Position numbers and translations under genes: made by a program. From the NCBI GenBank assembly GCA_950097015.1, contig CATNEN010000001.1, positions 19,096,001-19,160,000 on the forward strand: a DNA stretch of 64,000 nucleotides, written 5' to 3'. Below the pieces are notes generated by a model that was not told the DNA's origin, searched no databases, and was given only the letters and a program-made list of their open reading frames with translations. Shown piece after piece: positions 27,887 through 52,392 of the stretch; position 1 is the stretch's first letter, and every line of letters begins with the position of its first letter. The stretch comes from Macrostomum hystrix (lineage: Eukaryota; Animalia; Platyhelminthes).

Positions 27887-28708
27887 ATGGAGTCCGTTTG
27901 TCGACGTTTTCCTTCGACGCCGATAGACACCATCAGAACCTGCATGTACGACGGTGACGTCCAGGTTGGATATGCGCCGTTTGCCCTGGCCAACTGCGCA
28001 GACATAGTCTACGAGCAGCTCATGGCTGAGCTACTGCCCAAGGCCATCCGGCACCGACCTAGCGAGAGAAGGCTTGTCCATTGGATTGGCCCCGCATACT
28101 CCTACTCAGGAGTCGCTCTAGCTGCGAACAACGACTGGCACCCGACGCTGCTAGCGATTCGCGACTACCTGGTGGATGAGTCGGGCATTGACTTTCCAAT
28201 ATTCAACAGCTGTCTGGTCAACTTTTATCAAGACGCTGATGACAATATTCCTTACCACTCTGACGATGAGCCGGAGCTAGGGACAAATCCGACCATCGCC
28301 ACGGTGTCATTCGGCGCCTCCAGGACGTTCTGCGTGCGGGACAAGCGCACCCATAACGTCATTTATAAGTTCGACACGCTGCCTGGCTCGTTGATCACCA
28401 TGGCCGGAGCCTGCCAGCGCAAGATGCAACACGCCGTGCCAGCGGTGCATGCGCAGCAGGGAGCCCGAGTGTCGCTAACATTCCGTGTCACCGCGGAGCT
28501 AAAGGACAACCGTAACCGTAAGCGCCAAGCAGAAGAGCCTCTAGGCGTCAAGAGTCCCCTAGCAAAGGCACCGGCTGAAGCGACGTCTGACACCTCAGAC
28601 ACCTCAGACACCGTGGCAGCGGCGGCGGCGGCGGCGGCGGTGGTGGTAGAGGCAGCACCAGAGGTCTCAACGGTTCCGAAGGCGCAGGCACAGCCTGGTC
28701 CTTGGTGA
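27887..28708 (+). CDS. AlkB-family 2OG-Fe(II) dioxygenase (ALKBH2/3-like), N-terminal part of LINE ORF1
   Basis: YSYSG, FNSCLVNFY, HSD (HxD), QHAVP (distal His), RVSLTFR (RxxxxxR). Confidence 0.9.
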   Translation: MESVCRRFPSTPIDTIRTCMYDGDVQVGYAPFALANCADIVYEQLMAELLPKAIRHRPSERRLVHWIGPAYSYSGVALAANNDWHPTLLAIRDYLVDESGIDFPIFNSCLVNFYQDADDNIPYHSDDEPELGTNPTIATVSFGASRTFCVRDKRTHNVIYKFDTLPGSLITMAGACQRKMQHAVPAVHAQQGARVSLTFRVTAELKDNRNRKRQAEEPLGVKSPLAKAPAEATSDTSDTSDTVAAAAAAAAVVVEAAPEVSTVPKAQAQPGPW

Positions 28709-31118
28709 CTTAAATGCCAGGCACGGCTTCCTGGGGGGAGAAAGTAGGAGTAATAGAGCGGGTCAGCAACTCTACGACTGGCTCTGCTCAGATGAACCAA
28801 CCCCAACCGTTCTAAACCAGGTAGGGGACTTCACAAGAATTGCAAGCAAGGGGGAGTGATCTCACGGAACGTGCTGGATCTTGGACTAGCCTTAGAGGCA
28901 CTCGTCCCCCTCATCACCAACTTCTGCGTAGGGCAGGACCTGGATAGTGACCACCTTCCAATCATAGTCACCTTGGGACTTAAGTCTCCCCTTCTGAATG
29001 ATCAAGATGCCCCCAGAAATTATACTAAAGCAAACTGGGATGCCTTCAAATCCCACATTAGCCAAAAGCTCCTGGATCCCTGGGTCCCTCCCTTGGAAAC
29101 CCCGCAGGATCTAGATGCTGAGGCAGAATATCTAACTGAGGCCATCCAGGGAGCGATTGCGTATGCAGTTCCTCTGAGGAAACGGATCTCACCCCTACCA
29201 CCCTACATCGTGGACAAAATCAAGGAGAGGAGGAAGCTCCGCAGACTCTCACAGTTCTAGAGAGGATTCGTACCGGATCAGTGCAAATAGGCTGGCCAAA
29301 CAAATCCGCAAAGATATCGAAAATTTCAAACAGCGTAAGCACACTAAAATGTGCGAGAAACTGGTTGAAAAAAGTGAAAATCAAGAAGTCAAAAACTTTT
29401 GGCGGGATGTAAAAGTTCTAATGGGACAGAAGAAGGGTAACACCATCCCCACCCTGACCTCTGGGTCCATAAAGGCCTTTACCGACCAAGACAAGGCAAA
29501 TCTTCTTGCGGAGTCGCTGGATGCCAAGATGCGCCCTGTCCCGACCACCAGCCTTGATTATGCTGAGACGGTTAACCAATACTCCCAGCTCAGGCTGCTC
29601 TATCCCTCTAAGCCGGACAGCAGGATTCCACTGCTCCCCTTAGAGGCACCAATCAAGTTCGAGGACGTCACTTGGGAGCTTGCCCACCTGAGGGAGGATA
29701 GTGCCCCAGGGCTCGACAAGATCCCCAACAATGCCCTCAAACGTGGTCTCGAACACGTCTCAGTGACCCGTATAACCAGTCTGTTCAACGCCTGTTTTGA
29801 ACAAGGCCACTTTCCCAGCCCCTGGAAAAAAGCAGTAGTAGTGATGCTACCAAAGCCTAACAAACCCCGAGATGACCCAAACTCATACAGACCAATCAGC
29901 CTAACATCCTGCCTAGGCAAAGTTTTTGAAAAAATCATTGCGCGGAGGCTAAAAAGCCACCTGGAATCCACGGGCGCACTGGGTGCAGATCAATGCGCCT
30001 ACAGGAAAAATCACTCCACTTATGACAATCTGTGCCGCTTGGTGCAGAATATCATGGTGGCCAAACACAAGAAAAAGAAATTATCCGCAGTCCTGCTAGA
30101 TGTCGAAGCAGCCTTTGACTCCGTCTGGCAGGACGCACTGCGGTACCAAATGATCCAGGCAAACCTCCCGGGGCGGGTTCTTAGTATCTGCTCCAGCTAC
30201 CTTCGGGACAGGTTGGTCCTAGTGAGGGTTAACTTAGCCCTCAGCCAGTCGTTTAAACTCAAGGCTGGCGTCCCCCAGGGTGGAGTTATCAGCCCACTCC
30301 TCTATCTGCTCTTTGTGAGCACCATGCCAACCCCAAAAACACCTGGAGTAGAACGAAGCCAGTTCGCCGACGACATGGCAATCTGGGCGTCGGCGGAAGG
30401 TTTCGTTAAGCTCAGGAAAAACCTGCAGCGCTACCTGGATGAAGTCCATAAATGGTGCGGCGTGCAGGGCATCAAAATCAATGCCGGAAAAAGCCAGGCC
30501 ATAACCTTCAATTGCAACAAACCCAGGGTAGGGTGCCAGGACAAACGGCCCCAACTCCACCTGGGAACTGTGCAAATACAAAACTGTGATGTAGTTAAGT
30601 TCCTGGGCATAAAGCTGGACACTAACCTGAGACTTAATGAACACGTAAAATCACAAATCAACACTTGCAGAGCGCAGGTGATGTGCCTTAGCAAGATTGC
30701 AAAAAAGACCAATCTGAAGAGCGACACTCTGAAAATGCTATACCGGGCTTACGTGGAGAGCACCATGACATATGGAGCACCCATTCTAACAATCCTAAGC
30801 CCGGGAAACAAGAGTGACCTTCAGAAAATTCAAAACATTGCCCTCAGAATCTTCTATGGGATCCCATCCTACATCTCCACCAGCTACTTGCATGAGCATG
30901 CCCAGATGCCCCTGGTAGCGAACAGGATTGATGATCTGGGGACCCGCTGGCTCCTTAAAGCCTGCAAGGCTAAAATCCACACCCTAGACAGGCGCCCTGA
31001 TCCGATTAGGATAAAACCGGGGTCCAGAATGCCTGTTCTACATCACCTCTGGGAAATCCTGGAGAGGAGAATAGCTGCTGCTACACCAGCGCCCAGGGGT
31101 CCAGGCAGGACAAACTAA
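28692..31118 (+). pseudogene. LINE ORF2 (C-terminal half of APE endonuclease plus reverse transcriptase), 5'-deleted with two frameshifts
   Basis: LVLGDLNARH (from ~28695), VLDL, SDHLPI, then APGLDKI, YRPISL, LDVEAAFDSV, GVPQGGVISPLLY, FADD, KFLGI; frame changes near 28855 and 29260. Confidence 0.92.
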
Positions 31119-33734
31119 AAGAGGCAGCTGTTGCTGCAACAGCAACCAAAAAACAATCTCCAGCACCCAACATATGCAGCAGTTTATCTCATGTTGTGCT
31201 TGCTCTTTAGTTTGGCAAAAAAGTGGAAAAAATAACAAGTCCCGGCACTAGACACTAAGCCATCCAGGTATTCCTTTGGGTCATTTGGCAAGTTTCTTAC
31301 CAGCTTACTGCAAGTAGGTGATATTGGGGTGAGAAGTGTTTTCTAGGTTTGAGTTACGAAGATTTCAAGCTTGAACTAGATTGGGGTGGGCGTATGGGCT
31401 TGGGCTTGTTGATTTATTATTTGGCTGAAGCATAACTTGGTATAAAGGGCAGTTGTCACTGTCACTTTAGAGGGCAGGGGAGGATGTTCTCTAAGTGATT
31501 TAGATAGAAATTGAATAGGCTTAGAACCGCTGGGGGGTCATATTTTTTTGGCAAGAGTAGGCTATAGAAATTAGGCGGGGTGGTGGGTGTCTGACAGTTT
31601 ACCTAACAATGGGCCGGAACTGGAAAGGTAAAGTACAATTTTTTTAGGGTTCAGGCTAGTTTATGGGCACGGGACAGTATTGGCTCAGCATTGCAAGGCC
31701 CTGCCAGTCCAATTCGCATCACTTTAAGAGTTCAATGATCATTAGATTATTTTACTAAAGATTTGCAATGCCCTATGCCCTCCGATACGGAGTCGTTTTT
31801 TGCGGACACAAACCAAACCAAACCAATTCACCAATGTAAACCCTAGACTGCTCCCCTTGTGTGTGATGCGCCAGGACTATCAATCTAGCTTTTTTTCTAT
31901 CAATTCTTCTGTCAAACCAATTTACCAATGTAAATCTGTCAAACCAATTTACCAATGTAAACCCTAGGCTGCTCCCCTTGTGTGATGCGCCAGGACTACC
32001 AATCTAGCTACAAACTCTCAAATAAATTTTTTCCATCAATTTTTCTGTAACCCTCCAATGCGAAAAAACGCACTACAATCTCAATCTACCTATAACTCAC
32101 CTAGGCTGCTCCCCTTGCGATGCGCCAAAAGCTATCAATCTAATTACTAAGCTCTAATCTTTCTGCTAAATTACAAATGCGAAAATGCGATACCCTAACC
32201 AATTTGGGGGTTGGCTAGGCTTTGCAAATTCATATGTACTATGCGCTTGTCTTAGATTTCCTCTTTTATCCTGATGTCCTAATCTTTGTGAGGACCCATT
32301 TTTTATCCCAATCATGCGCACTCAATATACCAAAAAATATATTCCATTCGTTTTTTTTATCGTGTAAAATATTTTTCGTCAATCATATCCAATAAATATA
32401 CAGTACCTACAGCGGAAGAGCCCCTCCCAGGGCTGACCCGCGGGTCTTAGACCCAAACCTCTTAACAACAACGAGTCCGCCGCGAGAAGGCTGACACATG
32501 GGCTCATGAAATTAGCGCTTTAAAATGTAGCGCTTCACAGCACATTGTATTGCATGTGCAAAGTGACCTGTAAAAATTTTGCTAGTTGAACGAATTGTAT
32601 CCAAAATTTGGGCTTACTGGTATTCATTTTAGCGCTCTTAAACTTAACGCTTCACAGCACCCACACAAAAGTAGGTGCAGAGTGACTTGCTGTAATTGGC
32701 TCTGTAGATATACCAATTTTTCCATGGGATAGGGGTGGTATGGTATTTTGTTCCAACAGGAAGACCTCAGGTAGCAAATTTTATGGGAGACGAGGTGGGA
32801 ATTTTCGGGTTATATCGGGTCAACTTGGTAGCAGATTTACGCAAGACAATAGGCGGTAAGGGTTTGACGCAATAAGGGACTCTTGGAGGAATCACAAATG
32901 GTAATGGGTTTCGACAGATTTTAGCTGGAACTCGATGAGTTTCTGGCGTAGGTTTAGGACTTTTAGGAGCACCTTCAGAAGAGTTGCAGCGCTCTTCCTG
33001 CTGCTGCTGTTCTGCGGGAAGTTTTGTTGACGCACTCGTCTCTTGGCTAGTTGCTGATGTAATTTGTACCTCGCCGATATCCTTGTACATCTCAACCAGG
33101 ATAGATAGCTGACTAGCAGCGAACTCAAGTTCCATGTATTGGAGTGGATGCTTTTCTTCTGTAGTAAGTTTGTCAATATACTTTCCTAATTTTCAGATTT
33201 TTGCTCAGCTTTTTTCGACTCATTATTCGGTCTTTTCGGAGAGCCATTTGGGCCTCATTGAAACGCAAACATAGCAATTTTCGTATAGCGCTTATATTTC
33301 AGTGCGCAGCAGTTCAGTTCTGCTCCATTTAGCTTACTATTTAGATTTAATTATTCGGAAGTCAGATTAAGACAAAAAATGAACATAAAGGCCTTCCTAA
33401 AATCACTTTCATCTTCTCTCGTTTATAACAACGTAAACAGTGTATTTAAATTCACGCGTATTTAAATTCACGCGCTAGCTCTGCAGCTATTTTTAGAACT
33501 GGGAAGACCACGCTTCCTCTATGGCTTTGCTCGCAAGCACTCATTTTCTCTCGTTATTGATATTGCATTAGAGCAGCAGCAGTGTACAGTATACTGAATG
33601 TATTGTTTCGTTCGAGATCGATTGACTGACTGATTGACACTGATTGACACAGACTCTATGTCTTATGACATTCAATAATTTGATTTAACTTTGACTGGCG
33701 GCGGCAGCGACGACAAGCAAAAAACACGGAAAGG

Positions 33735-34345
33735 CAATTAGAATATAATTTCTATGCTAAAGTCTACTCGATTATATTTCGCAGAGGCTAACTAATGCTA
33801 TCCAGCTGTACAATTGAATATTTATCTCACCTCGAAGTGGGCACAGGCGGACGGGGGCTGGCTGCTGGTACTGCTGCTTCTGCTGCTTCTGCTGCTTCTG
33901 CTGCAACTGCTGCTACTGCTGCTATTGCTGCTACTGCTGCTGCTTGGCAAATGGGCACAGGCGGACGGGGCTGGCTTCGGCTACTGATGCTGCTGGCTGG
34001 TGCCGGCCGGTTTAGCTGCACTGAGCTGAGGATGAGCATGGAAAAAAGCAATTAGAATATAATTTCGACGCTAAAGTCTACTCGAATATAGTTGCTGAGG
34101 CTAACTAATGCTATCCAGCTGTACAATTTAATTTTTATCTCACCTCGAAGTAAGCACAGGCGGACGGGGTTGGCTGCTGGTACTGCTGCTTCTGCTGCAC
34201 CTCGAAGTGGGCACGGGCAGATGGGGCTGGCTGCTGGTACTGATGCTGCTAGAGCTGTTGAGCTGCTACTGAGCTGCTACTGCTGCTACTGCTGATGCTT
34301 CTGCTGATGCTGTCGGTTGCTTCTGCTGATGCTTCTGCTGATGCT
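33735..34345. repeat. GCT-rich low-complexity region with an internal duplication
   Basis: GCAATTAGAATATAATTTC..CACCTCGAAGT..GGCTGCTGGTACTGCTGC occurs twice (~33735, ~34048). Confidence 0.7.
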
Positions 34346-35067
34346 GTCTGTTGCGCTGCAAATAAGAAAAAGGCTATGTATTTTAAATAGGCCATATAAG
34401 TATCTGTTCATAAATATGCATTACAAGCTGTGTTAATATAATAGGCCCTCAGATTAGTCTTTGTATATATAATAGGCCCTTCAATTAGTATTTGTATACA
34501 TATAACAATCGGTCTGTTAATCTAATAGTTAATAGCGCATGCAGTTCTCTATAATTATAATATATTAGTAATCTCAGTAAGTGTAATGCAGTTCTGAGCT
34601 GCGTAGAAATATATTAGATCCTAATGCTCGCTGTTGACATAATAATAGATCCTGTGGCTCTCTGTCGGTATAATATCTGTAGCCTGTTTTAACTTTGTCC
34701 AAGCAAATAGAAGGCTGACTGTTGATTCGAATTGTGGATGGATCTCTGAATTATATTTGACTGTAAGCTGCAGTTCGATCGAGCAGTTGGGCCGGGCTAA
34801 AACTAAAAGACTGCTACTTTGCTTGCCACCCTTTCTTTAAACCTTCGAAAGCGAAAGGGGGCGGCCCTGTCTCTAAATTCATAGTCTATGGTAAAAGGGT
34901 GTGGAAGGCCACTGCTCTGCCTTGAAAAAGAGAAGCAGTGTGTCTGCTTTAACCAATCGATAATGTCACCCCTGTGGCCATAGACTGAAGACGATCGAAG
35001 TCGTCTCTCTTTCCATCTGCAGGTCTGTCTGGCTGGCTCGGCACTGCTTTTGAGGGAGGAAGATCGA

Positions 35068-36445
35068 GTTGGAGGGGGTGGGTGTGCTGTTCACTGGAAA
35101 ATCGAATGTCTGAGCTTTTCGAGGGGTTTGCTAAAGCGTAAACAAATGTAGTACGCATATAGTGCAGGGCACGCTTCTTTTTGGAACTTCGGGCTCTCTC
35201 CCTCAGAGGGAGCCCCGTCTTAGTAGGAAATTAGCAGCAGCAGCAAGAACTAACAAACAAAATATTCGCTAACTTTTAAACGATTTACTCACATGCACTC
35301 TCTATACATATACTTGTAATGCGATAAACTCAATACATATAAACAACGATAAATAATGATTTCGATTGATTGCACAGACTGACACTGATTGATGCTTACT
35401 CTTTGCCCTTTTAATTTGCTATAATGATGAACCAAATCAAAGCTATAACGTATATATACTGTTTCTGTGCGGCGGTGGCAGCTGCGGCAGCGACGACTCA
35501 AGCCAGTGATTAGCTGTATTTCTTGCAACATGTTTTACGGCTTTGCGCTTTGCTGTCATCATTCAATACAGCTGATCATCATGGCCTACGCAGCAGAGCG
35601 CGCCGGAGCAGTCCGCGAGTCGATTCAGGCTGCGATTCGCCTGATTGTGACTGCTCGCGGCGGCGTGTGCTGGCTCCCCTGGCTGCTGAACAAGGGATTG
35701 CCAAGGGCCGGCATTAGTGCCGAGCTTCTGGCATTCGCCGATTTCGCCAACGCGGAAGCCGCCATCGAATCTACGCATGGACTCGCTGTTGTGTTCATGC
35801 AGGAGGGCAGCTACTTCGTTGTCGAGGGCCCGCCGACACAACAGCGGGTCCGTGAGGTGATGGCGGCCCAAAATCGGCAGATCCCCGCCTGGCCGCATTG
35901 GCGACTGGCCGACGCAGAGTCCGGCTACGCAAGTATTGCGGACTCAGAGGAGTCGGACTAACATTTTATTTTAGTGGGGAGTCGGGGATTGGAGGGGGTG
36001 TGCTGTTCACTGGAGAATCGAAGTCTGACCTTTTGAGGGGTTTGCTAAATCGTAAACAAATCTAGTATTTAGTGCAGGGCACGCTTCTTTTTTGGAACTT
36101 CGGGCTCTCTCCCTCAGAGTGAGCCCCGTCTTAGTAGGAAATTAGCAGCAGCAGCAAGAACTAACAAACAAAATATTCGCTAACTTTTAAACGATTTACT
36201 CACATGCACTCTCTATACATATACTTGTAATGCGATAAAATCAATACATATATATATGATTGATAACGAGATCGGTTGACTACCGATACTGACACAGATT
36301 GACTCTCACTCTGCTCTTTTAATTTGCTGCATTGTGTGTATTTCATATAACCGAACTGACGGTTTTATAAATACTGATTCCATTGCGGCGGTGGCATCTG
36401 CGGCAGCGACGACTCAAGCCAGTGATTAGCTATATTTCTTGCATC
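35068..36445. repeat. Duplicated upstream module (~35068-35525 and ~35988-36445) preceding each LOTUS gene
   Basis: Shared TTGGAGGGGGTG..GGGCTCTCTCCCTCAGAG(G/T)GAGCCCC hairpin..TATA-like box..GGCGGTGGCA..GACGACTCAAGCCAGTGATTAGCT. Confidence 0.85.
35581..35961 (+). CDS. Stand-alone LOTUS (OST-HTH)-like protein, paralog 1
   Basis: IRLIVTARGGVCWLPWL..FANAEAAIESTHGLAVV..G..TQQRVREVMAAQ fits the extended LOTUS pattern of TDRD5/TDRD7; clear paralog at 36460. Confidence 0.6.
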   Translation: MAYAAERAGAVRESIQAAIRLIVTARGGVCWLPWLLNKGLPRAGISAELLAFADFANAEAAIESTHGLAVVFMQEGSYFVVEGPPTQQRVREVMAAQNRQIPAWPHWRLADAESGYASIADSEESD

Positions 36446-36459
36446 ATTTAATCTAGACA

Positions 36460-36813
36460 ATGGAGGAAATCCGCGCAGTCGTGCACCGAGCCATCTCGAT
36501 GATCATCGACTCGTGCGGTGGTGTTATCGAGCTGCTCCAACTGTGCACCTCCATGCGAGCAGTTGGTGTCTCGCAGGGCGAGGTATTGGCAGCCGGCTAC
36601 CCGTCCTTCATCGCTGCCATACAGTCGACGCCTGGCATCTCCGTCGTGCGGATGGAGGACGGGCGCGTATTTGTCGTCAGAGGGCCGCCGACACGCGAGA
36701 GAGTGCGCGAGCTATTGGCTGCGCCAATAAACATTGCCGACTTTTGGCTGCGCACTTGGGCTGAGCGGGTCGATCGTGGTGGTGGTGCTAGGCCGGACCT
36801 AGGTCGGAATTAA
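36460..36813 (+). CDS. Stand-alone LOTUS (OST-HTH)-like protein, paralog 2
   Basis: ISMIIDSCGGVIELLQL..MR..AGYPSFIAAIQSTPGISVV..DGRVFV..TRERVRELLAA fits the LOTUS G(F/Y)xxxxxxLxSxP core plus the C-terminal extension helix. Confidence 0.65.
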   Translation: MEEIRAVVHRAISMIIDSCGGVIELLQLCTSMRAVGVSQGEVLAAGYPSFIAAIQSTPGISVVRMEDGRVFVVRGPPTRERVRELLAAPINIADFWLRTWAERVDRGGGARPDLGRN

Positions 36814-38037
36814 CTAAGTCGACAAATGGGAACCTAGAATCGGAGATGAATTAGGAACAGGGGTTTCCGGGAGATTAACTGACTTGGAGATGGATGGAAG
36901 CAAAATGGGGATAAATTTTTAACATGGGATTGAAATGGGGATAGTTTTTTGCTGTATACAGTATTTCTGATTTAGCTCTTCTTCTGCTTCTTTTCTTGCC
37001 CCCGATGGGAGTGGACCTGAGAGTTCCTTAGCTCGGTCCGACCTCAGGCCACTGCCCAGGGGCTCTCCTGGTCTTGTGCTTACCTCATTCTCTACTCTTG
37101 TCCAACCTTTCCTCTCGTCTCTCCTATCTTGACATCTCTTCCTTTTCATTTTCCCTTCCTTTAGATTTTCTCGCCGTCTTTAAACGTAACTTAATGTAAT
37201 ATTTTATTCATTATTATTCATTATTTACTCATTAATATTCATTATGTACTTTTTTAAATTGTAAATGTGAATGTTCAACATAAAAACATAATACTAATAA
37301 TAGCAAATAAAAAACATTACAATTAAAAAAAACTCAAATATTTGATAGTGATTTAGCAGATGTCGCAGCGCCTTTTACTTCGTTATTTCCTCAAATAACT
37401 AAAATATCAGAGAGCTTATAGCCGCCTGCGTGACTAAAAGTGTTGCACTATGCGCAACACAGTGCTTAGTGAATTCTCTATGTATGCAAGAATTAAGTGC
37501 TATGGCAGCTTGGGTCTGCGTCAGTGAGCTATTGGCCAATTAAGACGCGCCACATGCTACTTTTAAGCCATAGAGGACACAGCCACAAGGTCAGAGACTG
37601 CCGATCGATTTAATTTAGGCCAATAAATTCGCGGTCTGTAAGAATGCACATAAAATGAGGCCAGTACTTTTGGCCAGAGACTAAATTAATAACTGACGCA
37701 CTGTCGTTATGTGATCGGCATGTGAGAGAACAAGAAACCTCTTCTGGGGCTCTCACAGTGGGGAGTCTCGGCATACATGTAGCAGCCAAACATCGAACTC
37801 TATAATATAGAACTGATTGCTCGACGAGGTCGATTGATTGACATACACACGCTGATTGTACTACATAGCAAATGAAAAATTATGTTTTTAAAATTTATAA
37901 ATGATTCAGAGGCTTATAATTTTTACAGCCGGGATGTTGTTGTTGTTGTTGTTGTTGTTGTTAGGTACAACATAAAAATAAGTGATTTATGTGCTCAACG
38001 CAGCACTCAATCGAATATAAATGCAGCAGCGATGACA

Positions 38038-38140
38038 ACAGTACGGGACAATGTGCGCGCACAACACTTAAAATAGTGTATTCCATAATGGGATATAGGG
38101 GCATATATATATTTATTTAGATGCACGCACAACGGACTGT
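38038..38140. repeat. Degenerate inverted-repeat element with GTGCGCGCAC core (copy 1)
   Basis: ACAGTAC..TGTGCGCGCACAACACTTAAAA ... TGCACGCACAACGGACTGT; related to 41550 and 46300. Confidence 0.55.
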
Positions 38141-38225
38141 ACATAGCATGTGTTGATTGAGCATGTATACTGAATTCAGTTCATACACCTATATGGCACT
38201 GCATCAATTTGTAATAACAATAGCT

Positions 38226-41088
38226 ATGACAGACAACGAGTCGTGCTGCATCTTCTGTGGCGACGGCAGACCGCAGACGCATCCGAAGCGCCACTTCCTG
38301 AGGAGGCACGCGGAGGAGGCTGTGCGCCAATTCTGACTCGATGATGCCCCAGTCAAGGTGCGGCCGTCCGAGGCATCTTGGGCGGCGGCGTTAGCCAAGC
38401 AGCGTGCCCAGATGGTCTGGCTCTGCCTGACGTGCAGCACCCATACGCGCAGCTCAGCCAACACTGAGCATGTACACGCATGCCCAGCCTGCGGCAAGGT
38501 GCTGCGTAGGACGGCAAGGCAGCACAGGTGTCCAGCAGTGCCAGCTGTTGTCGCTACCGTTTCTGTGGACCAACAGCAGCCACCGCCTCCGCAGCAGATG
38601 CCACCACCGCATCCGCAGCAGATGCCACCACCGCCTCCGCAGCTGCCTTCCGAGGCAGAACCAGCTGAATACGAGGCTGGGTCTCTGTTGGCCGAGCTCT
38701 ACAGCATCGCCGCGCCGTCAGTTGACGGTCGACAGTCAGCGGCCAGTGCTCGGCTGTCGTCAGCCAGCCGTCCAGCCGTCCGGCGACGCCAATTTGACCC
38801 GACTGCGCCGCTGCTGCTGATGTCCTCACAGGATGACGCTGACGATGGAGATGACGATGTCGGCTTGCAGGAGCTACTGCCCGGAACCAGCATCAGAATG
38901 CGGACTCTGTCGACGGTCCATACGGTGGCAGCAGAGTCTTCCTCTTCGGCTGCCTGTCTGCAGTTGGCGGTGCAGGCCACTAAGTCGGCGCTTAATCGTC
39001 CCAGCACGTCATCGGCTGTGGTGTCGGCTGCACAGAGGCCGCTAGTGAAGCTGGCAGCTACTCCGCCGAGGCAGCGTCGAGCAGCTGCAGCAAGGTGGGC
39101 TGCGTTGAAGATAAAACTGGCCAGTGCCGAATTCGACCGGCTTCAAAAGTCCATATTCGGAGCAGAACTGCAGCAGGAAGCGTCGACAGCCGATCAGAAG
39201 CAGCAGCAACAGCGTCGCGGTCCGCGCTGTCGACACTTTCGCACGTCGCCACCTGCGAAGCCCGTGCCACCAGAGCTGCTGCAGCTGTTGGGTGACCGGC
39301 CCAGCATCTCCGCAACGGTGGAACGCCTGCGGGAGCTATGGTGGAGGGACCCATCGCGGGCCAGGATTGCGGCCAACTTGTGCCACCAGCAGCGTTGGCG
39401 GGACATTAGCAGGTCCGTGAGCTCGACGCTTCTACGCACCTGGCAGCGAGCGGGGATCTCGCTTGCAGACCTGCTGCTTCAGCCGGACAGGGTGCAGGAC
39501 TGCTTCAGCGCTGAAACAGTCGGTGACGCCATGCAGCTGGCCCAGTCGACTGCTGCTCGCAAGTGCCAGGAGCTTGTCAGCATCTGCCGCTGCATGGAGG
39601 GCTGGCTACGCGTGAGGGGCCTGCGAGGCGCCAATGCCATCATGGCCGCCGTTGGCTTGCGCGAAGCCGAGCTGTTCTGCAGCATCGACTCACCCTTGCC
39701 TGACACCGAGCGCCCTGCTATTGAGGACGTTGACTCTGTCGGCAGTGGCGTCTGCTGGAGAATGCAGTTGGCGCAGAAGGCCAACAACCCGCTGGCGGCT
39801 GAGCAGGCTCTCATCGCCCGCCTTAGCAGCGTGGTGCAGCAGGCTCGTGGCGAGTTCGGCAATGTCCGAGCCATACAGCAGGTAGGCTATAGCTGCACAG
39901 CAGCTGCATTAATGACAGTTAGTTCTATTTGGTTTCGTGCTGCTATCTACTAGAAGTAAACGCAACCACATTTATACTATGCAGGCCGTCTACAAGCTTG
40001 GCCACAATGAGCGGCAGGTGGCCTTCATGGACACTTACATCAACGTGGACGAGGTTGATGCCGTGTTCGCCCGCCGTGATCGTTTTTTTGCCATGCTACA
40101 AAGGCACAGCTGGACTTTGCTGCCAGTCGACGGCGAATGGGGCATGCAGGCAGCAGGTGTGGTCGCTGATGGCATCGCTGATGTCACCAAAGACAACGGC
40201 GAAGCAGATGATGGTGCCTTCAGTCGCCGGATGGTTTGTCTGCGGAGGATTGTGCAGGAGATGCTGTTCTACTGCAGCATTGAGCAGCCCCTGCGACTCC
40301 TGCCGTGGATCTACATCCGTCGGCGACACCTGGTCGACCGTTCGGTTCGGCGAAACGCGTCGGCCGACCAAAAACAGCTGTTCCGCCAACACACGCAAAG
40401 TGCAGATGGGGAGAGCGGGCCGTCCGCTGCCGATCTGGCTGGGCACTCGCATCTCGTCCTGCCGCTGCGTGAAGTGCCGCACAAGGTCGGACACTCCGGC
40501 GACCCAGCCAGGATGGTGCTGCCGGATCTATTCTGCGAGGCCTTGCTGCGCCTGCACGACGAATATATCGTGCCGTCGCTTGCTGCTCGCGGCATCGAGC
40601 AACCGGAGTCGCCGACCGTCTTCATTGATGTGTTCGGCGGTGTGTACAGCCAGTCGGCAATGAGCCGCATGATCAGCGCAGGCGGGCAGCGAGTACTGGG
40701 TCGGCACTATGTGGCCACGCACTGGCGTCGCACCCTCTGTGCCGTAGTGCTCATGATGGAGCCGGAGCAGCTGGATATGTTCGCCAGAGCGCACGGCACA
40801 TCTGCAGCTGTCATCCGGTACAATTATGGGCACAATGCCCAGATGGCCACCGAGATGGGCACAGTAATTCGCAGCCGCGATATTGTCCGCCGGTTTGTGG
40901 TGCCATCAGGTGACGCAGAGATGCGACCAATAGTTAGGCCGCCGACCCAGGGACTCATCAGCAGCCTGGCTGGTGGAAGTGGGGAGGTGGCGGCGAGCAC
41001 CCAACGAGCCGACGCAGTCCTGCACGGTAGACCGGTGGCCGGAAAGCGACGGCGGCTGCACTCAGTGGCGGAGCATAATTTTGATTGA
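38226..41088 (+). pseudogene. Zinc-finger plus tyrosine recombinase gene (exons 38226-39881 and 39985-41088), one premature TGA at 38334
   Basis: N-terminal CxxC/H clusters; phase-0 GTAGGC..TGCAG intron joins the two track ORFs in frame; C-terminal R (QPLR), K (HKVG), HxxR (HWRR), GTS-x7-Y arrangement of the phage-integrase fold. Confidence 0.75.
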
Positions 41089-41303
41089 TTCGCCCTGCCT
41101 GCCCGCCTGTCTGTCTGCCTGCTTTATTTAAGATTTTATATATACAATATATATAGTATATATATATTTAAATATTTAAATAGTGAGTGAAAAACACCGT
41201 GGGGCAGATAAAGGGGGCCGGGACAGAGAGAAAACACGCAGAGAAAACATGCACAGGCCTTCGAGGGAGGGATAATTGAATTCGTTTGACTGCATGTTAC
41301 TGC

Positions 41304-41341
41304 AGCGTATAAAGCGCGCACATGTGCGCGCTTTATACGCT
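41304..41341. repeat. Perfect 38-bp palindrome
   Basis: AGCGTATAAAGCGCGCACA|TGTGCGCGCTTTATACGCT. Confidence 0.95.
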
Positions 41342-41549
41342 AATGTTATTATAATTGATATTATATGCTATAGTTAAGAATATTGATTGTATTGATTGAC
41401 TGATTACTCCCGTTGATAATATTATACTTTATTGTTTTTGTTGATAGAATTATTTAATTAGCCATAGATTTATCTGACAATTATTAAACAAATGCTGCTA
41501 ACTGCTCTACTTATAGTAGTCAAGTAAGCAATTTAATTTTAGATTTAGG

Positions 41550-41664
41550 TACAGTTCATAGTGCGCGCACAATACTTAAAAAATATATAAGGATCGTCGT
41601 TCTAAAATTAGAGCTGACATGCCTTATATATTTTTTAGGGAATGTGCGCGCACTACAGACTGTA
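41550..41664. repeat. Inverted-repeat element, TA-CAGT..ACTG-TA, GTGCGCGCAC core (copy 2; MITE-like)
   Basis: TACAGTTCATAGTGCGCGCACAAT..ATGTGCGCGCACTACAGACTGTA. Confidence 0.75.
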
Positions 41665-43154
41665 GACATTGAATTTCGTAGAATTTAGCGCGAATTTGAA
41701 ATTTTAGTTTCTTATATAAAATCTATAAATAACTGATTAGCACTATATGCAGCTGTTAATTGCCGTTATTAAATCGTACTACTATATTATATGTATAGCT
41801 TTTTGCGTCCATCCAAATTGTATTTTAATGCACACATCATTACTACATGTATTTTAATAGATTGTTGTTTCAGATGCCGCTTGTTGATTATCATCTTAAA
41901 TTAGTTTTTTTCAAATCCATACGTACCGTCTACATGTAGTTCTTGATCGAATGCTTTTTCTTGATTTATGTCCTTTATTCACACAATAATGCATGCAGTC
42001 AGCTTTTCATACCATATACTAGTATACTTGCTCAAATTATTATAGCTCAATTATTATAAATTATAATAACACAAATAGCGCCCAAATAAGCACATAACAA
42101 CTGCGTGTGTGTAAAATTATTTTTAGACTACTATTAATAAAGGAATGCGATAAACTCAAGACATAGACAAAGCTTAGGCACATAGAAACTAAATTTTATC
42201 AGGAAGGACTGTATTGCTCATCTTGAGCACACAAGTCAAAGAGAGCTAGCTCGCGCACTGATTGATTTCTCTATGCCAATCGATTAAGACAGACTCGATC
42301 GTTCCCAAGCTACACTTTGATTTTCAATACCAACTCTATTAATCAACCAAATCAGCTCCTTCGTGATCTACTATTTCGTTTCGACTGCCCCCTACACTGT
42401 TCCGATTGCTCCGCTCCAGCTGCGACCCCAACGACGACGACTGCGTTTAAAGTGATTTTTATCTGCGCTCCACAAGGTAGGCAATCATTGTTAATTATTC
42501 TAGCTGCCCATCTATCTAACTTGTTGGAGAGCAGCAACAGCAACAACAACAACAACTATTTGTTGGCGGTGAGGGATTAAAAAGTTTAATGGAGCCGGTA
42601 CAGAAAAAGTAGAACGGCAATAAAATGGGGACAATTGAAATTGTCGACAGCCTGCGACATATGCTAAATGAAAATATTGACTCTGAAATAATAGAACTCA
42701 AAATAAAAGCAATCAGATAAGAGCGAGAAGCGATCCTGAGAACAAGTAATAAATGCCATCTCCATCTCTTAGCACATCTAGACTGACGAGCAACAAAAAC
42801 ACTAGGAAAACACTGCGCGCTATTTAATTCAATTAAACTAATCCCATCTAATGCTTTATAAATTGCTATAGTCCGCGCACATTTCTGCTACCCCGTTTTC
42901 TGCAACTGCGTGCCAGGTATAGATTATAATATATGGTGCTGTTAAACAGCCGAACCCAAAAGCCATTCCTTATTTAGCCCAATAAGGACTAATATTTTGT
43001 TATGTACGAGCTCGTAATATTTTGGCCGTCTAGCTATTTCTGCCTGCCCACATCTGCTAACCCGCTTTAAGATGGTGGTGGAGACAAAATACGGGCGCAG
43101 GGATGAAATAACTTAGCAATAGACAGACAGACAGACAGACATATAAAGGCGGCC

Positions 43155-45947
43155 TCATTCAACCTGGGCGTTGGCGGCGGCGGCTCCGAACATCGGCTGC
43201 TGGCGGCACCCCCCCTGGCAGGCCTGGATGTCGTGGTCGACCTCGACGCATGTATTGCCCTCGTTGCGCAGGCGCCGCTGCACGTCAGCCGGGTAGTCGT
43301 CAGGTGAGGCGTGGCCGGCCATGATCACCAGCCGTTGGCCCCAGTCCAGGTAGACGTGCGCCTGGTGCTTCGCATTGACCAGGAAGCTGTTGCCGTTCAG
43401 CAGGCGCAACAGCGTGGTCTCCAGGTCGCCGCCCTCGAACATGTGCGGCCGCACCTCGTCCAGAAAGATGACGGAGTGGCGCGCGGTGTCCAGGCCGTCG
43501 AACATGAAGTCATTGCCACCGAAGCGCTTGATGACCGGACAGAAGACGCGCTCCTGGCCCAGGTGGCGCTCGACGGCGGTGGTCTTGCCGACTCCCGACG
43601 GCCCGTAAAGGTACACAACGCCCGACTGGTGGCGAAGGGCTGTGCAGACGGCCTCTCGGAGCGGGCACAGGTTCCTAATGTCGGCAGCCTCGGTGGAACA
43701 TGCGGAACAGCCGGCGAGCTGCTCCCTGCGAATCCGGCGCTGGCGCTGCACGTCTCTAAAGACCCCCAGCAACGTGGCGCGCATCTGCTGGTGGGCCAAC
43801 AAGAAGCCGTCAGTCTGGTCGGGCAGGTTGGCAGTCAGCGGGTAGGACAGCGCCCACCGAGTCGCTTGCACCAGCATGCTGCACTGCGTGGCGCCGATCC
43901 CGATCAGCAGCGGGTAGCCGTCGTGCTGCGTCAGGCTCCGCAGCACACTGTCTGGCGAGCGGACGCCGCACAGCGTCAGGGTGGTCCGGTCGGGCACCAC
44001 AAAGCAGCGTCCCTCGTCTCGGCTAGGCAGCAGGCTGAACAGCAGCTCGTACAAATGCCAGCCGGCCGCGTTGGTCTCCAGGCGCACGAAGCCGGACAGA
44101 GTGCGGTGTGGCCGATACTCGCTGTGCTGCTGCTGCTGCTGCTGTTGCTCCATCTCGTCGACGGAGAGCGGGTCAGCGACTAGCCGCCGGTCGCAGAACT
44201 CATCCATGCCGACGCAGAGGCCCGGGCTGGACGCCAGGACGAGCTCGACACAGTGTGCCTCCAGAGCCTCGCCCAGATATACCTTGGCACGCCCTGTTTA
44301 TGTAGGCAGCATGGAAACAGTGGATGCCAGCAGCTGGTTATATGATTCAGAGCTTATGAACAAAGCAAGTGACTCACCGACGAAGCGCACCTTGTCGATG
44401 TGGAAGACGTGCAAATAGCGGCGCCCGGTCAGAATGCCGCTGTCCTCGGGCAGTCGCTCCGCAGGAGCAGCACCGGTCATTGCGAGCGGCCGGCTGACTG
44501 AGCGCGTCACAGTGAACTGCTGCTGTGCTGCTGCCGCATTAAGCAGCGGATTTTGGCCCAGCCGTCGCACCCCTCGGCCGCCTCGTTGTCCTCTGGCGCC
44601 GCCGACCCCGCTCCCGCTCGCCTCGCTGTCCCCCTGCTGTTACTGGAGGAAGTGAATAAGCTGTGCCGCAGACGCCGGCGGACTGTAGCTGAAGGGCACC
44701 AGCGAGGGAGGACGCTCGAGCTGCACCTGCTCTTGTTGCTGCAGCGGCTGTGGTGTTAATATGCGCCACCACTCCTCGCCGACAGGGACGGACTGGCTGG
44801 CCTCATTCATAGCGGCCACCACGGCTGCTGCGAATGCCGCTGTGCCAGGCGACACCACGTAGGCCGTCGTCTCATCTTCCGGACGCTGAGACGGTGTGGT
44901 CTTGGCGACTGCTAATCGTCGGCCATCGGGCTGCGAGTCTGGCACCATGGCGCCCACAATGGAGCAGTCGGCAGCAGCAGCAACAGCGGGAGCAGTCGTT
45001 TCGAGCCGCTGGAAACGGAATCTCCGCCTCCCTGGCTGCTGTTGTTGGTCGGCCGCGACTTGAGGCGGTTTCGGCACCGTGCTGGCGGCCTCCTCCATTT
45101 CCGCATCAGCGCCCGACGGTGGGGGATCTGCAGCGACTGACAGCGCAACGGTGGACGCCTCGTAGTCCAGCAGTGCCTGCAGAGCATCGCGGTCGTCGCT
45201 ATCCATCGCCGCCTCCTGCTCGTTAGGCTCCGATGGCTCCGCCTTTGTGCGAGTTGCCGCTGTCGGCCTGCCGTTATCGGCGCGCTCGTCGTCGACGTCC
45301 TCAATCTCGATGACGACGGGGCTGCGAGGCTGTAGGGCTGCCGTGGACATGTCGGGCGCATCAGACGCCGCCCCGTCGCCATCGCCGCAGTTGGCAGGAG
45401 CATGTCGCCTGACGTGCCTGATCGCTGCCGGCGATGACCATCTGCTGGTGGCCTTCTTGGCACTCCGGTGCTGATCTCCGAGCCAAGCCAGCATGCTCCC
45501 TTTTGGCGCAGTCGAGGCTGAGGCTGCCATCGCGTGGGAGATGGGCGCGTAGACGGCCGATATACTGGCAGGCGGTGGCTGCTGATTGCCTGTGGACATC
45601 TGGTCACTGGCAGGCTGCTGCTCTCCAGTGTTTAGGCGCATGACACCGCTCAATGGCAGCAGGCTGAAGTCGTCGGCGTCGCTGCTGATGTTAGCCACCG
45701 CTGCTGTCTGCACTGGGGTGAAAGTATATATACGCTTTGGGCCTGGCGTAGATTCTGCGGCTGCTGCATTGACAATCCGACGTTGAGAGGGAGCGCTCTT
45801 TCTTTTTCGCTGTGATGGTGGCTGGCGAGTTGATGACGCTACCGGCCCGGCGGAGTTACTATCTTGGGCAACTCTCTCAAACTCGTCCAGCGCGGCCGCA
45901 ATTCGCTCATCGTCGCTGTCGCAGCCGGTTGAAAAGTTGAACGACAT
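43155..45947 (-). pseudogene. CRESS-Rep-like protein with SF3 helicase (exons 45947-44378 and 44293-43155), long disordered N-terminus, one premature TAA at 44640-44642
   Basis: Walker A GPSGVGKT, Walker B IFLDE, B' VNAK, motif C region VIMAGH, Arg finger QRRL; GTGAGT..ACAG 84-bp intron keeps frame; Rep-like N-domain with degenerate motifs II and III. Confidence 0.7.
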
Positions 45948-46166
45948 TCTGTGCTTCCGCAGGTTAATTATAGGCGCGTTCAAATTTGGATGTATGAAAA
46001 TGAGCAGGCTGCAGAAAGCCAACGCAGTCCCAGGTACTCAACTTCAACTGGGTGCAACAGGGTGGGATTCGCTATTAATAATAGAGTCCCAAGTACGTCC
46101 CAAGGAGGAGGAGCAGGCTATTTAGGATGAGCAGCAGATAGTACCAGTGTTACTACTACTTATAGT

Positions 46167-46204
46167 AGATCAATATGCGCGCACATGTGCGCGCATATTG
46201 ATCT
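46167..46204. repeat. Perfect 38-bp palindrome
   Basis: AGATCAATATGCGCGCACA|TGTGCGCGCATATTGATCT; same 18-bp core as 41304-41341. Confidence 0.95.
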
Positions 46205-46299
46205 TATAGCTTTAAACTGATAGATTGAGATTCTATTAATAGGTGCTTAATTAGGTTAATTCGGATCCCGGTTAAGTTGATTGTGTACTTTTAGCTAGA

Positions 46300-46432
46300 A
46301 GTACAGTTCATAGTGCGCGCACATTACTTAAAAATATATAAGGACTTGCCTGCTATTTTTAGGTAGATAAGCACCTCGCATCGTCTTATGTATATATTTC
46401 TTAGGGATTGTGCGCGCACCACGAACTGTACT
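46300..46432. repeat. Inverted-repeat element, TA-CAGT..ACTG-TA, GTGCGCGCAC core (copy 3; MITE-like)
   Basis: AGTACAGTTCATAGTGCGCGCACA..TGTGCGCGCACCACGAACTGTACT. Confidence 0.8.
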
Positions 46433-46586
46433 CTTATACGGTCTATTTTTAGGTTATCCAAAAAAAACTTCCCGGTATCGAGTTGGATCTGCCACCTTAG
46501 TTCTTTTATTGGTGCAGACTTGGTTTGGGTTCACAAACAGGGATAAGTTATTTTAACTGTCTAGTAGCTAAGTCTTTTTGCTGCTG

Positions 46587-47006
46587 CTACTGCTCCATTC
46601 GATATTCGCGACTCCGGAACAACTCTCGCAGTCTTGCCCTTTGCTGCACGCCGCGCCAGTAGTCCAGCCCGTGTAGAATGTGCTGCAGCTCCGAACAGGT
46701 GTCCTCCAGCAGGCCTAGCAGCTCGGCCAAGTCGAAAGCCTCGTTCTCTGTTAGGCAGGTCACCTCCAGGATGGTCTCGTAGCCCGCAGCTGTCTGGTGT
46801 TGTAGCAGCCAGTCCAGGAGGCTCTTCAGCAAGGTGTGTAGCTGGGTGGCATTCAGCTCAGCATTCGGGCAGTGGCGCTGCAGGCAGGTCAGCTGCTCCA
46901 GTCGTCCTCGGTACGCCAGGAACGGGGCCAGGCAGGCGATGTCGCATCTGGCCAGGAGTGCCACGATGGCCGGCGAGCCGAACAGCGCCACAGGATGAGC
47001 ATTCAT
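46587..47006 (-). CDS. Unknown Leu-rich, probably all-helical 139-aa protein
   Basis: GC-rich ORF in AT-rich flanks, TATA-like sequence upstream; no family confidently recognised. Confidence 0.5.
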   Translation of the reverse strand: MNAHPVALFGSPAIVALLARCDIACLAPFLAYRGRLEQLTCLQRHCPNAELNATQLHTLLKSLLDWLLQHQTAAGYETILEVTCLTENEAFDLAELLGLLEDTCSELQHILHGLDYWRGVQQRARLRELFRSREYRMEQ

Positions 47007-47383
47007 CGTGGTTCTACGCACCCAACAATGTCGTGAGTGCAGCAGCAACGCGTCTAACACTAGCTAATACCGCTATAGTCACTATATATCCCACAGTATA
47101 TTGGAAAATTTTCGATCGATAATCACAGTGCGAAATGGGTCCCTAACTCAGGTGCGGGCAGTGGCATGGGGCTGCAGTCATCATGTAACGTAAGATAATA
47201 CCCTGCATGAAACTCATTTCATAGAATGTTCGAACTGCATTCCGCTGCTGTCACAACTGCGCCATTTGAAACAAAATTATCATGACTGGTATATGTATTC
47301 AATCAGCCAACCGATCTCGCACCTAACACTGCAACAATTGCTATCAGTAGTCATCAATTTAGAATTATAGCAAAGCGGGTCGC

Positions 47384-47805
47384 GGGCTCTTTTGCTGCAT
47401 AAGAAAGCATTAAGGATTGAGTCGGGCTCTTTTGCTGCATAAGAAAGCATTAAGGGTTGAGTCGGGCTCTTTTGCTGCATAAGAAAGCATTAAGGGTTGA
47501 GTCGGGCTCTTTTGCTGCATAAGAAAGCATAGGGGACTCGGCCGGGCTCTTTTGCTGCATAAGAAAGCATAGGGGACTCAGCCGGGCTCTTTTGCTGCAT
47601 AAGAAAGCATAGGGGACTCGGCCGGGCTCTTTTGCTGCATAAGAAAGCATTAAGGGTTGAGTCGGGCTCTTTTGCTGCATAAGAAAGCATAGGGGACTCG
47701 GCCGGGCTCTTTTGCTGCATAAGAAAGCATAGGGGACTCGGCCGGGCTCTTTTGCTGCATAAGAAAGCATAGGGGACTCGGCCGGGCTCTTTTGCTGCAT
47801 AAGAA
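47384..47805. repeat. 40-bp tandem repeat, ~10.5 copies, two alternating variants
   Basis: GGGCTCTTTTGCTGCATAAGAAAGCAT followed by TAAGGGTTGAGTC or AGGGGACTCGGCC. Confidence 0.95.
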
Positions 47806-48227
47806 TCGCTACATAAAAAACCATAGACTACACAGCCGGGCTGAATTGCCGCTATTGCAATTTCAATAGAGAGAGTGAGTGCGAGCGAGGAAAATATGTG
47901 AAGTTCTGCTACACGCCGCGAACCTGATTCGCGTAATTTCAGGACAGCCGCACGACCCGCGAGGGCTTTGCGGCGGTATGTAGAGCCATATTCAGGTACG
48001 TGGCATCTCTTAAAATGCGCTCTTTGGTGAGAAATCAGAGCCCCGCATATCGGACAGAGACACACCGGCTTCGCTTTTGAAGTCGCCTTCGCGAAGTCAA
48101 TCATCGCCTGAATCCTGTCATCCTCCAGAGCGGGGTGCCTTTTCTCGCAATGCCTCCAAAGCATGTAGGATCGACCAGTCCAATTGGAACAGACAAGACA
48201 GGACACTTTCGCGTGTTTGTTGGGCAT
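47490..48227 (-). CDS. Double C2H2-like zinc-finger protein (first ~105 aa plausible; remainder reads through the minisatellite)
   Basis: CLVC..HCEKRH and CPIC..HFKRCH; shares W..HC..HP.L..RI.A..LCP.C with 17418-17954. Confidence 0.55.
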   Translation of the reverse strand: MPNKHAKVSCLVCSNWTGRSYMLWRHCEKRHPALEDDRIQAMIDFAKATSKAKPVCLCPICGALISHQRAHFKRCHVPEYGSTYRRKALAGRAAVLKLRESGSRRVAELHIFSSLALTLSIEIAIAAIQPGCVVYGFLCSDSYAAKEPGRVPYAFLCSKRARPSPLCFLMQQKSPAESPMLSYAAKEPDSTLNAFLCSKRARPSPLCFLMQQKSPAESPMLSYAAKEPGRVPYAFLCSKRARLNP

Positions 48228-48373
48228 GGTAAGTTTTGTGTGTTTACAGTTTGAAGTTTAAAGTTTTTTTAAGTTGCCTGCGTTTCGCTGAAATCGGTGA
48301 CGTATACAGGTGCAAGTATGTAATTTGTAATTATGTAAATGCTAAAAAAGGAAAATACGTTTATCAAGCACGG

Positions 48374-48831
48374 CAAGCAATGAAAAAAATAAGAACGAGA
48401 AACGCTGTTTAGGAGCCCCTCCATTTATTTGACAGACAATGAAACTGTGAGCTATATAATAATAATAAAACGGAATTGAACGGAAAAGCTGATAAATGAA
48501 CGAATTTAATAGTGTCATTAGTCCCACGAATAAAAACAGCTAACGTAATTACACTGCCAGTCCGCTGGATAGTGCAAACATGCACGGTAATTAGCAGATT
48601 TTATTCGCGCTCAACGAGTCCGCCGCGAGAAGGCTGACACATGGGCTCATGAAATTAGCGCTTTAAAATGTAGCGCTTCACAGCACATTGAATTGCATGT
48701 GCAAAGTGACCTGTATAATTTTGCTAGTTGAAAGAAATATGTGTCCAAACTTTGGGCTTACTGGTATTAATTTTAGCGCTCTTAAACTTAACGCTTCACA
48801 GCACCCACACAAAAGTAGGTGCAGAGTGACT
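48374..48831. repeat. ~460-bp dispersed repeat; uninterrupted copy of the sequence split by the LINE (27430-27682 plus 32478-32688)
   Basis: Colinear identity from GACAGACAATGAAACTGTGAGC through CAACGAGTC to GTAGGTGCAGAGTGACTT. Confidence 0.9.
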
Positions 48832-48902
48832 TTACAAGGCAGCGCTTGACTTCAATTAAAAACACAAGTAACGGTGGAATCATCAGTACACTGGTTGGAT
48901 AC

Positions 48903-51704: not shown

Positions 51705-52370
51705 TGATGTGCTGTAGACTGCTGAGCAGCCTCCAGGCAATCTGTGAGTCAGGCTGTTCTAGGTCTGTGGGAGGGCTAGGGTTGGTAGTTAGTGTTTCCC
51801 GTGCACTGTCACATCCGCTCGCCACCCCCTCCGCTCTCTCTCTCTCTCTTTCCAGCTCTGTCTGCGCACTGAGTCACATTGCACACCATGGTGCAATCGC
51901 TTAAGTTCGGAAGAAGACTGGCAGAACAACGCTCAAATGCTCCTACTATAAGTAGAGCACAGTCCGACGAATCCTTGAGATGGGGTTGTTATCATGGTAG
52001 CACGTTTTCTGTATGAATATGGCACGTTTCTTGTCTCCAGTTCTCCCGCTCGGAACAGTTTGTGATTACTTTCTGTGTCCATTCTTTTGGCTCTCTAAAG
52101 ATCTTAGACAATTCTTGTTGGTCTAGGTCACACACTGCATTTAGAAGCTTGGTGTGTCACCCGATCTAGCATAAGATCTGTGAGTTTAGCTAGAACGTGG
52201 ACTAGGTAGAAGAAGTCCCGAGAGAACTTAGCTGTCTAAGCCTGACTACCGGATTGTTCCTCTGCTAGGAAGCATCTGAGTGTGAGGCCGGATACTCTCT
52301 CTCTCGGAATCTAGTTCCTGTCTTGGTTATTTTTACCAATTGTGTGTGCCACGCTACCACAGGTACAACA
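51705..52370 (+). repeat. 5' LTR
   Basis: TGATGTGCTG..GGTACAACA; appears identical by eye to 60180-60845. Confidence 0.97.
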
Positions 52371-52371
52371 T

Positions 52372-52392
52372 TGGTGGCAAAGCGGTGTGATT
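52372..52392 (+). promoter_or_regulatory. PBS, imperfect tRNA-Leu type
   Basis: TGGTGGCAAAGCGGTGTGATT versus TGGTGGCAGCGGTGGGATT (2-nt insertion, one mismatch). Confidence 0.65.

Follow-up and report, generated by a model that had tools for sequence, protein, structure and literature searches.

An unclassified mobile element of 14.7 kb carries two small tandem accessory genes, ORF1 and ORF2, which are under purifying selection and encode proteins whose predicted fold is closest to that of the LOTUS domain. The LOTUS domain is already known, and the novelty would lie in its apparent presence as stand-alone copies on a mobile element. From the modelled structure, we tentatively propose that the two proteins may serve the element as decoys that would bind the Vasa helicase of the host and leave it inactive, a reading that we hold to be possible but short of probable. 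Coordinates are those of the window, that is, the whole 64-kb stretch of DNA that was analysed. The element, its contents and the gene that it interrupts are as follows.

33171..47896, no strand: inserted element of 14,726 bases, with TGT at both junctions (33171-33173 and 47897-47899) and short, imperfect inverted ends; the empty site is present in runs X1, X4 and X5
32767..33170, minus strand: 3' half of the interrupted Cys/His-rich gene, from the empty-site contigs
47897..48227, minus strand: 5' half of the interrupted Cys/His-rich gene, from frame continuity across the empty site
35069..35580, plus strand: ORF1 upstream module, with a shared distal block, a candidate non-coding exon and a candidate 66-nt intron (35506-35571); splice sites inferred from sequence
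35581..35961, plus strand: ORF1, a 126-aa LOTUS-like protein whose C-terminal helix is followed by an acidic tail; predicted fold taken from the paralogue ORF2
35989..36459, plus strand: ORF2 upstream module, 85% identical to the ORF1 module over 472 columns, with a candidate 35-nt intron (36422-36456); splice sites inferred likewise
36460..36813, plus strand: ORF2, a 117-aa predicted winged-helix protein that in structure matches the TDRD5 LOTUS domain best, with insert (residues 39-44), Ghxph motif (46-50) and C-terminal helix (79-87)
38226..41088, plus strand: recombinase-like gene, with a Cys/His-rich start, a candidate in-frame 103-nt intron (39882-39984) and, in the last exon, an R..K..HxxR..Y pattern picked out by eye
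38053..46419, no strand: seven intergenic palindromes of alternating purine and pyrimidine (at 38053, 41314, 41561, 41644, 46177, 46313 and 46410), with none elsewhere in the window
43155..44297, minus strand: exon of an SF3-like helicase / P-loop ATPase that shares 68% identity with Macrostomum lignano BOX15_Mlig013629g1 across 247 aa
44301..46037, minus strand: a pair of frames that lie upstream of the helicase and match no family, one of 113 codons and one, of low complexity, of 465 codons
46587..47006, minus strand: unclassified 139-aa ORF
47383..47805, no strand: tandem array with a 40-nt unit, immediately within the element's right end

The inserted element and its gene content

Contigs of four public sequencing runs were aligned to positions 28500-48000, and three of the four runs (X1, X4 and X5, from two studies) contained a joint from 33170 to 47897, with a shorter side of 104 letters and with the TGT fitting either side. 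Since this empty site skips 14,726 bases, the region 33171-47896 is an insertion, and ORF1 and ORF2 are its cargo. The initial annotation had set the two genes next to a mobile-element recombinase; the mobile-element setting is borne out and extended, as the empty site places both genes inside the insertion. The reading frame of the Cys/His-rich minus-strand gene is, by arithmetic, continuous across the empty site. The depth of the empty-site contig was high (609), so the insertion target is itself likely to be repeated DNA. The insertion is precise, and a short core stands at each of its two junctions, a structure that fits a tyrosine recombinase without proving one and that a different enzyme could equally leave through a 3-bp target duplication. 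A search of 33000-48300 gave no Rfam family.

The interrupted gene is flanked by two 95% identical 220-bp repeats (32469-32688 and 48612-48832) and lies beside a Kyakuja-Dileera-Zisupton (KDZ) transposase at 48903-51101, which consists of two frames with B-box and CxC1-like parts. The window further contains a Gypsy-type LTR retrotransposon (51705-60845, label by eye), whose 666-bp terminal repeats are identical and whose third ORF lies at 58834-59751, an AlkB-like 2OG-Fe(II) oxygenase ORF (PF13532, E 4e-23) directly upstream of a LINE-like reverse transcriptase ORF (label by eye; the two at 27887-31118), and a perfect 1890-bp inverted repeat (21122-23011 and 24223-26112) around a short zinc-knuckle-like ORF.

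The assignment of the neighbouring gene as a recombinase was not substantiated, as family searches and profiles gave no significant match and the motif pattern was recognised by eye only. The gene had no match in Pfam, PHROGs, PDB, phages or viral contigs and no relative among 7997 candidates, whose range of 202-646 aa falls short of the length that the spliced protein would have, and it scored no better than shuffles against a profile of 33 bacterial recombinase domains. In hhalign, its HxxR box paired with that of XerC, at a probability of 0.2. A single-sequence model of the protein had a pLDDT of 31 and no usable fold, and an in-frame stop is present in this copy at 38334-38336, near the 5' end of the gene.

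The SF3 label of the helicase derives from weak Pfam matches (PF00910, E 0.015; DUF5906, E 0.018), together with motifs that we take to be those of SF3 helicases. BOX15_Mlig013629g1 was the sole relative of the helicase among 1446 candidates, and its occurrence in M. lignano makes it likely that a related element exists there and that the host is itself a flatworm of the genus Macrostomum. The run with the fullest cover, X1, may derive from the source of the window. In profile searches, the element showed nothing recognisable as a capsid, packaging ATPase, protease or polymerase; Polinton-like virus capsids can escape such searches (PMC11296320, excerpt).

Two tandem cassettes under purifying selection

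As initially annotated, ORF1 and ORF2 are tandem plus-strand paralogues with open frames. They are identical at 35 of 86 aligned residues (41%, E 8e-18), both coding frames are unbroken, and no further copy of either was found within the 64-kb window. Both form GC-rich islands (0.62-0.63) amid AT-rich spacers. The genes had also been called intronless, which is correct for the coding parts; directly before each ATG, however, lies a candidate short GT-AG intron, judged on sequence alone. An alternative ATG for ORF1 at 35530 (143 aa) was rejected, being within the candidate intron and without a counterpart in ORF2. The two proteins are most alike over the wing end and C-terminal helix, where 13 of 18 residues are identical (71-88), compared with 23 of 70 before this stretch. 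Over 87 core codons, the paralogues differ by a pN of 0.435 and a pS of 0.71, giving a dN of ∼0.65 and a dS of ∼2.2 that is near saturation.

Variant contigs from four public sequencing runs were aligned to 35440-36900, where run X6 had no cover. Codon changes were counted among the 40 differences listed of a total of 79, 22 of which come from a third paralogue of run X1 within ORF2 and amount to 19 codons. This paralogue is represented by a contig with 39 differences over 36556-36878, and its 5' coding part could not be aligned at 80%. Among the differences listed, 15 of its 19 changed codons relative to ORF2 are synonymous, where 28% are expected (binomial p 7e-6), as are all four changed codons of the C-terminal helix. 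In a contig of run X2, six of seven changed codons are synonymous (7 of its 13 differences being listed).

The initial annotation had named neutrally decaying fragments of a host Tudor gene as a refuting alternative. That the ORFs are pieces of such a Tudor/LOTUS gene, acquired by the element and now in functionless decay, is highly improbable and already largely refuted. Strong divergence from any known sequence would suit such fragments, but both frames are open, dN lies below dS over the core codons, and the changes in both variant contigs are mostly synonymous among those listed. In addition, start, stop and upstream module are separate for the two genes, at least three paralogues have the conserved upstream module in common, and a Tudor domain had no match in the 48 frames scanned within and beside the element.

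The proteins had been described as far more diverged than the distal part of the duplicated DNA upstream, and a comparison with the coding DNA confirmed this: in 50-column blocks, 35107-35305 is 91-100% identical, against 34-64% for the coding part. Each module is ∼470 bases long and ends in a conserved GC-rich block, which is followed by the candidate intron and the ATG. At loose ends and joints in the run contigs, the upstream module continues into still other acceptors and start codons. Its summed depth is ∼600-1500, compared with 105.5 for ORF1, depth being no measure of copy number. This arrangement suggests a putative expression module that may be shared, reused or homogenised among several cassettes. 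A shared and reused module would explain why alike upstream DNA precedes unlike proteins.

In run X1, a joint from 35113 to 37851 skips 2737 bases containing both LOTUS-like genes, with a depth of 366 and a short side of only 27 letters; it possibly represents element copies that have no LOTUS-like cassette. Near the left end of the element, 33700-34400 contains duplicated low-complexity Ala/Ser-rich blocks, and a motif at 33701 resembles that upstream of the LOTUS-like genes. This region is possibly another accessory gene.

Predicted fold and likeness to LOTUS

The structure of ORF2 was modelled from a two-row alignment in which ORF1 was the second row, and the fold of ORF1 is taken from that of ORF2. 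The model (pLDDT 80.9) contains a helix at 2-18, a strand, a helix at 25-34, a short helix at 39-44, a helix at 50-56, two wing strands and a helix at 79-87 (a block with pLDDT 82-93); a further helix at 92-105 is of low confidence. When compared with 48,161 representative chains, the top structural match was the TDRD5 LOTUS domain (Z 8.6, rmsd 2.3, 75 of 81 residues aligned), and other matches were a TFIIIC winged helix (Z 8.2-8.4, rmsd ∼4.0), TDRD7 (8.1), MARF1 (7.7), Tejas (7.4) and Oskar (7.0). Matches within 1 Z were counted as tied, so the TFIIIC winged helix ties with the TDRD5 LOTUS domain. LOTUS domains made up five of the ten best structural matches, with an rmsd of 2.2-3.0 over most of the length. 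Other winged helices reached Z 7-7.6 (Zur, 7.6), with Z-alpha domains at 6.4-6.8 and Egalitarian at 6.7. A second structural comparison agreed, and the entry for the Oskar-Vasa complex was absent from the rows of both lists. Among the LOTUS structures listed, none aligned past ORF2 residue 81, before the end of the C-terminal helix. A Foldseek search with the ORF2 model gave no match at E < 0.001.

What defines the OST-HTH domain, and is said to be unique to it, is that helices 2 and 3 are separated by a helical insert bearing a Ghxph motif (PMC2848206, excerpt). In the ORF2 model, the six-residue helix at 39-44 lies between helix 2 and helix 3, and the motif is present at 46-50, whereas ORF1 is without its glycine. 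The C-terminal helix (79-87) follows the wing.

At the level of sequence, neither ORF was matched by the PF12872 profile (E up to 5) or by a profile built from 33 bacterial LOTUS domains, and the latter also misses the solved TDRD5, TDRD7 and Oskar chains. The search for relatives of the ORFs came back empty for 21 candidates with lengths of 64-205 aa, for 125 stretches of viral contigs and 271 stretches of metagenome contigs, and for PHROGs, and PDB sequences yielded none that was significant; an exact look-up found none of the nine window proteins. HMMER against 1.84 billion representatives returned three matches, all of them tandem-repeat proteins without LOTUS, and these were rejected. In an ESM Atlas feature search, ORF2 was matched by viral/eukaryotic clusters of 113-128 aa at 0.87-0.88, one of which has OST-HTH on 24% of its members, and by OST-HTH and Egalitarian winged-helix clusters at 0.80-0.87, scores below 0.9 being leads only. 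ORF1 had no usable match in this search.

The LOTUS match that had been made by eye is therefore upheld by structure, in that the ORF2 model has a winged helix, a LOTUS domain as best match and a helix after the wing, and is not upheld by sequence, as PF12872 had no match. A winged-helix fold closest to LOTUS is what the ORF2 model predicts. With PF12872 unmatched, the proteins are filed as LOTUS-like and not as members of the family; LOTUS ancestry of ORF1 and ORF2 is likely.

The palindromes and the matches at Z 6.4-6.8 prompted us to consider the proteins as Z-alpha domains, a reading that was set aside. The insert is extra relative to Z-alpha, and the residues that we take to be the Z-alpha signature are not evident in ORF2.

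The proteins could also be winged-helix DNA-binding regulators, such as repressors or excision-direction factors, that act at the element ends or palindromes and share with LOTUS the fold only. DNA-binding winged helices do come close behind the LOTUS domains (TFIIIC Z 8.2, Zur 7.6, Z-alpha 6.8), the seven palindromes lie between the element genes and nowhere else in the window, and small winged-helix excision factors of phages adjoin tyrosine recombinases. However, a regulator of this kind is decidedly unlikely. The proteins are acidic or near neutral (10 basic and 15 acidic residues in ORF1, 14 and 13 in ORF2), and low overall basic charge fits a protein partner better than DNA. The rmsd to LOTUS domains is below that to TFIIIC, and ORF2 contains both of the features, insert and motif, that are described as exclusive to OST-HTH. 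Finally, the depth of ORF1, at 105.5, compared with 559-581 for the recombinase-like and helicase genes, hints that the LOTUS-like genes are optional, with the proviso that depth gives no copy number.

Proposed Vasa binding, other roles and significance

Extended LOTUS domains contact Vasa on its C-terminal RecA domain by way of an early helix and the C-terminal helix, and the latter is the best-conserved portion of the host domains and is required for Vasa binding (PMC5458760, excerpts). This helix occurs in animal LOTUS domains only and is dispensable for RNA binding (PMC7498356, excerpt). Removal of the basic tail that follows it left Vasa binding intact and abolished stimulation (10.64898/2026.03.28.715021, excerpt). 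In the first 12 residues past the C-terminal helix there are two basic residues in ORF1 and one in ORF2, and the ORF1 tail is acidic; the basic tail is thus absent. A conserved last helix followed by a non-basic tail is the anatomy to be expected of a binder that does not activate.

The decoy proposal can be stated as a series of steps. The selected accessory genes ORF1 and ORF2 are cargo of the 14.7-kb element, their predicted LOTUS-like products would dock on the host helicase Vasa, and the docked products would fail to switch Vasa on. With Vasa occupied but not activated, the element would then be silenced less strongly by piRNAs. When Vasa was knocked down in M. lignano, piRNAs became essentially undetectable (PMC4604429, excerpt), so Vasa would matter as a target.

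Several observations weigh against this proposal. No search gave a Pfam LOTUS match or a relative by sequence, the lead from structure is thin, given that an unrelated winged helix (TFIIIC) ties, and ORF1 has neither the Ghxph glycine nor a usable ESM Atlas match. The Vasa interface tolerates little variation, in that residue 162 of Oskar has to be small and residue 228 both small and hydrophobic (PMC5458760, excerpts), and loss of the conserved Lys/Arg at Oskar 236 impaired binding as well as stimulation (10.64898/2026.03.28.715021, excerpt). By offsets from the first residues of the aligned ranges, Oskar 162 would correspond to Ser13 if the alignment is ungapped, and Oskar 228, from the range offsets only, to Val82 or Arg83. 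In a putative alternative alignment, Oskar 162 would instead fall on the bulky Met14 (Leu in ORF1), and Oskar 228 on Val82. The Lys/Arg at Oskar 236 has no evident counterpart in ORF2. Not all extended LOTUS domains are predicted to bind Vasa, an exception being the second domain of worm EGGD-1 (PMC12803171, excerpt). A broad block of the piRNA pathway should also cost the host, and known transposon anti-silencing factors have a narrow action (PMC6719617, excerpts). A complex prediction for ORF2 residues 1-106 with a stand-in animal Vasa C-terminal domain (metagenome protein L027, whose closest PDB match is Drosophila Vasa) scored 0.00 against a mark of 0.34 and, being run without alignments or folded controls, weighs neither way.

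LOTUS-derived proteins may instead have a different role, either binding G-rich or structured RNA, or recruiting Vasa or another partner to element transcripts and so routing these into or past germ granules. The same evidence for a LOTUS-like fold applies to such proteins, and MARF1 (Z 7.7) and Egalitarian (Z 6.7) are also matched. The uncertain residue at Oskar 162 would be irrelevant, and a narrow, self-directed effect agrees with the known anti-silencing factors (PMC6719617, excerpts). We nevertheless consider this role rather unlikely, since basic charge is low, no canonical four-tract G-quadruplex motif was found on either strand of the element, and it is the last helix, dispensable for RNA binding, that is best conserved.

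In its fullest form, the decoy proposal would have an unclassified 14.7-kb recombinase-helicase element family of Macrostomum flatworms capture the extended LOTUS domain and multiply it. The copies would act on their own as dominant-negative mimics, occupying Vasa without activating it and antagonising the piRNA pathway, and their genes would sit in exchangeable cassettes, each preceded by the common promoter module. Taken as a whole, this scenario is doubtful.

The likeness to the extended LOTUS domains of TDRD5/Tejas, TDRD7/Tapas and Oskar consists of the winged-helix core with helical insert (Z 7.0-8.6) and the conserved post-wing helix. In contrast to those proteins, the ORFs are element-encoded and stand alone at 117-126 aa, without a Tudor or SGNH domain, a profile match or a basic tail. 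The minimal LOTUS domains of MARF1 and bacterial NYN-LOTUS proteins and the Egalitarian winged helix have the same core fold (Z 7.7 for MARF1, 6.7 for Egalitarian), but the minimal domains, unlike the ORFs, have no C-terminal helix and are set in nuclease fusions. The nearest feature matches to ORF2 are small LOTUS-annotated viral/eukaryotic proteins of the ESM Atlas (the 113-128-aa clusters at 0.87-0.88), whose taxa rest on few members. VANC of the Arabidopsis VANDAL transposons is likewise an accessory protein of a DNA element and a proposed counter to silencing; unlike the ORFs, it is sequence-specific and acts on plant DNA methylation (PMC6719617, excerpts).

The element as a whole resembles tyrosine-recombinase/primase-helicase Polinton-like viruses, Cryptons and Starships in its size class, its helicase and recombinase-like gene, its short repeated junction core and its accessory genes. 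It differs from them in having no recognised capsid, packaging ATPase, protease or polymerase, in that the putative recombinase-like gene is not at the element end, and in its candidate introns. The Crypton and Starship traits used in this comparison are in part general background.

Whether animal transposons counter piRNA silencing is a long-standing open question, and a 2019 review, in the parts excerpted, knew of no element-encoded factor against the piRNA pathway (PMC6719617). In the literature searched, which had most subscription papers outside its scope, we found no stand-alone LOTUS-like genes on a mobile element, no element-encoded piRNA anti-silencing factor and no description of the 14.7-kb element itself. 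ORF1 and ORF2 thus provide a concrete, small and cheaply testable anti-piRNA candidate, in a genus, Macrostomum, where the piRNA pathway depends on Vasa and where RNAi and transgenesis are available. Should the decoy reading prove wrong, the absence of both these stand-alone genes and their element from the literature searched would still hold. If the proteins are indeed Vasa-occupying mimics, they would constitute a mobile-element-encoded antagonist of the animal piRNA pathway.
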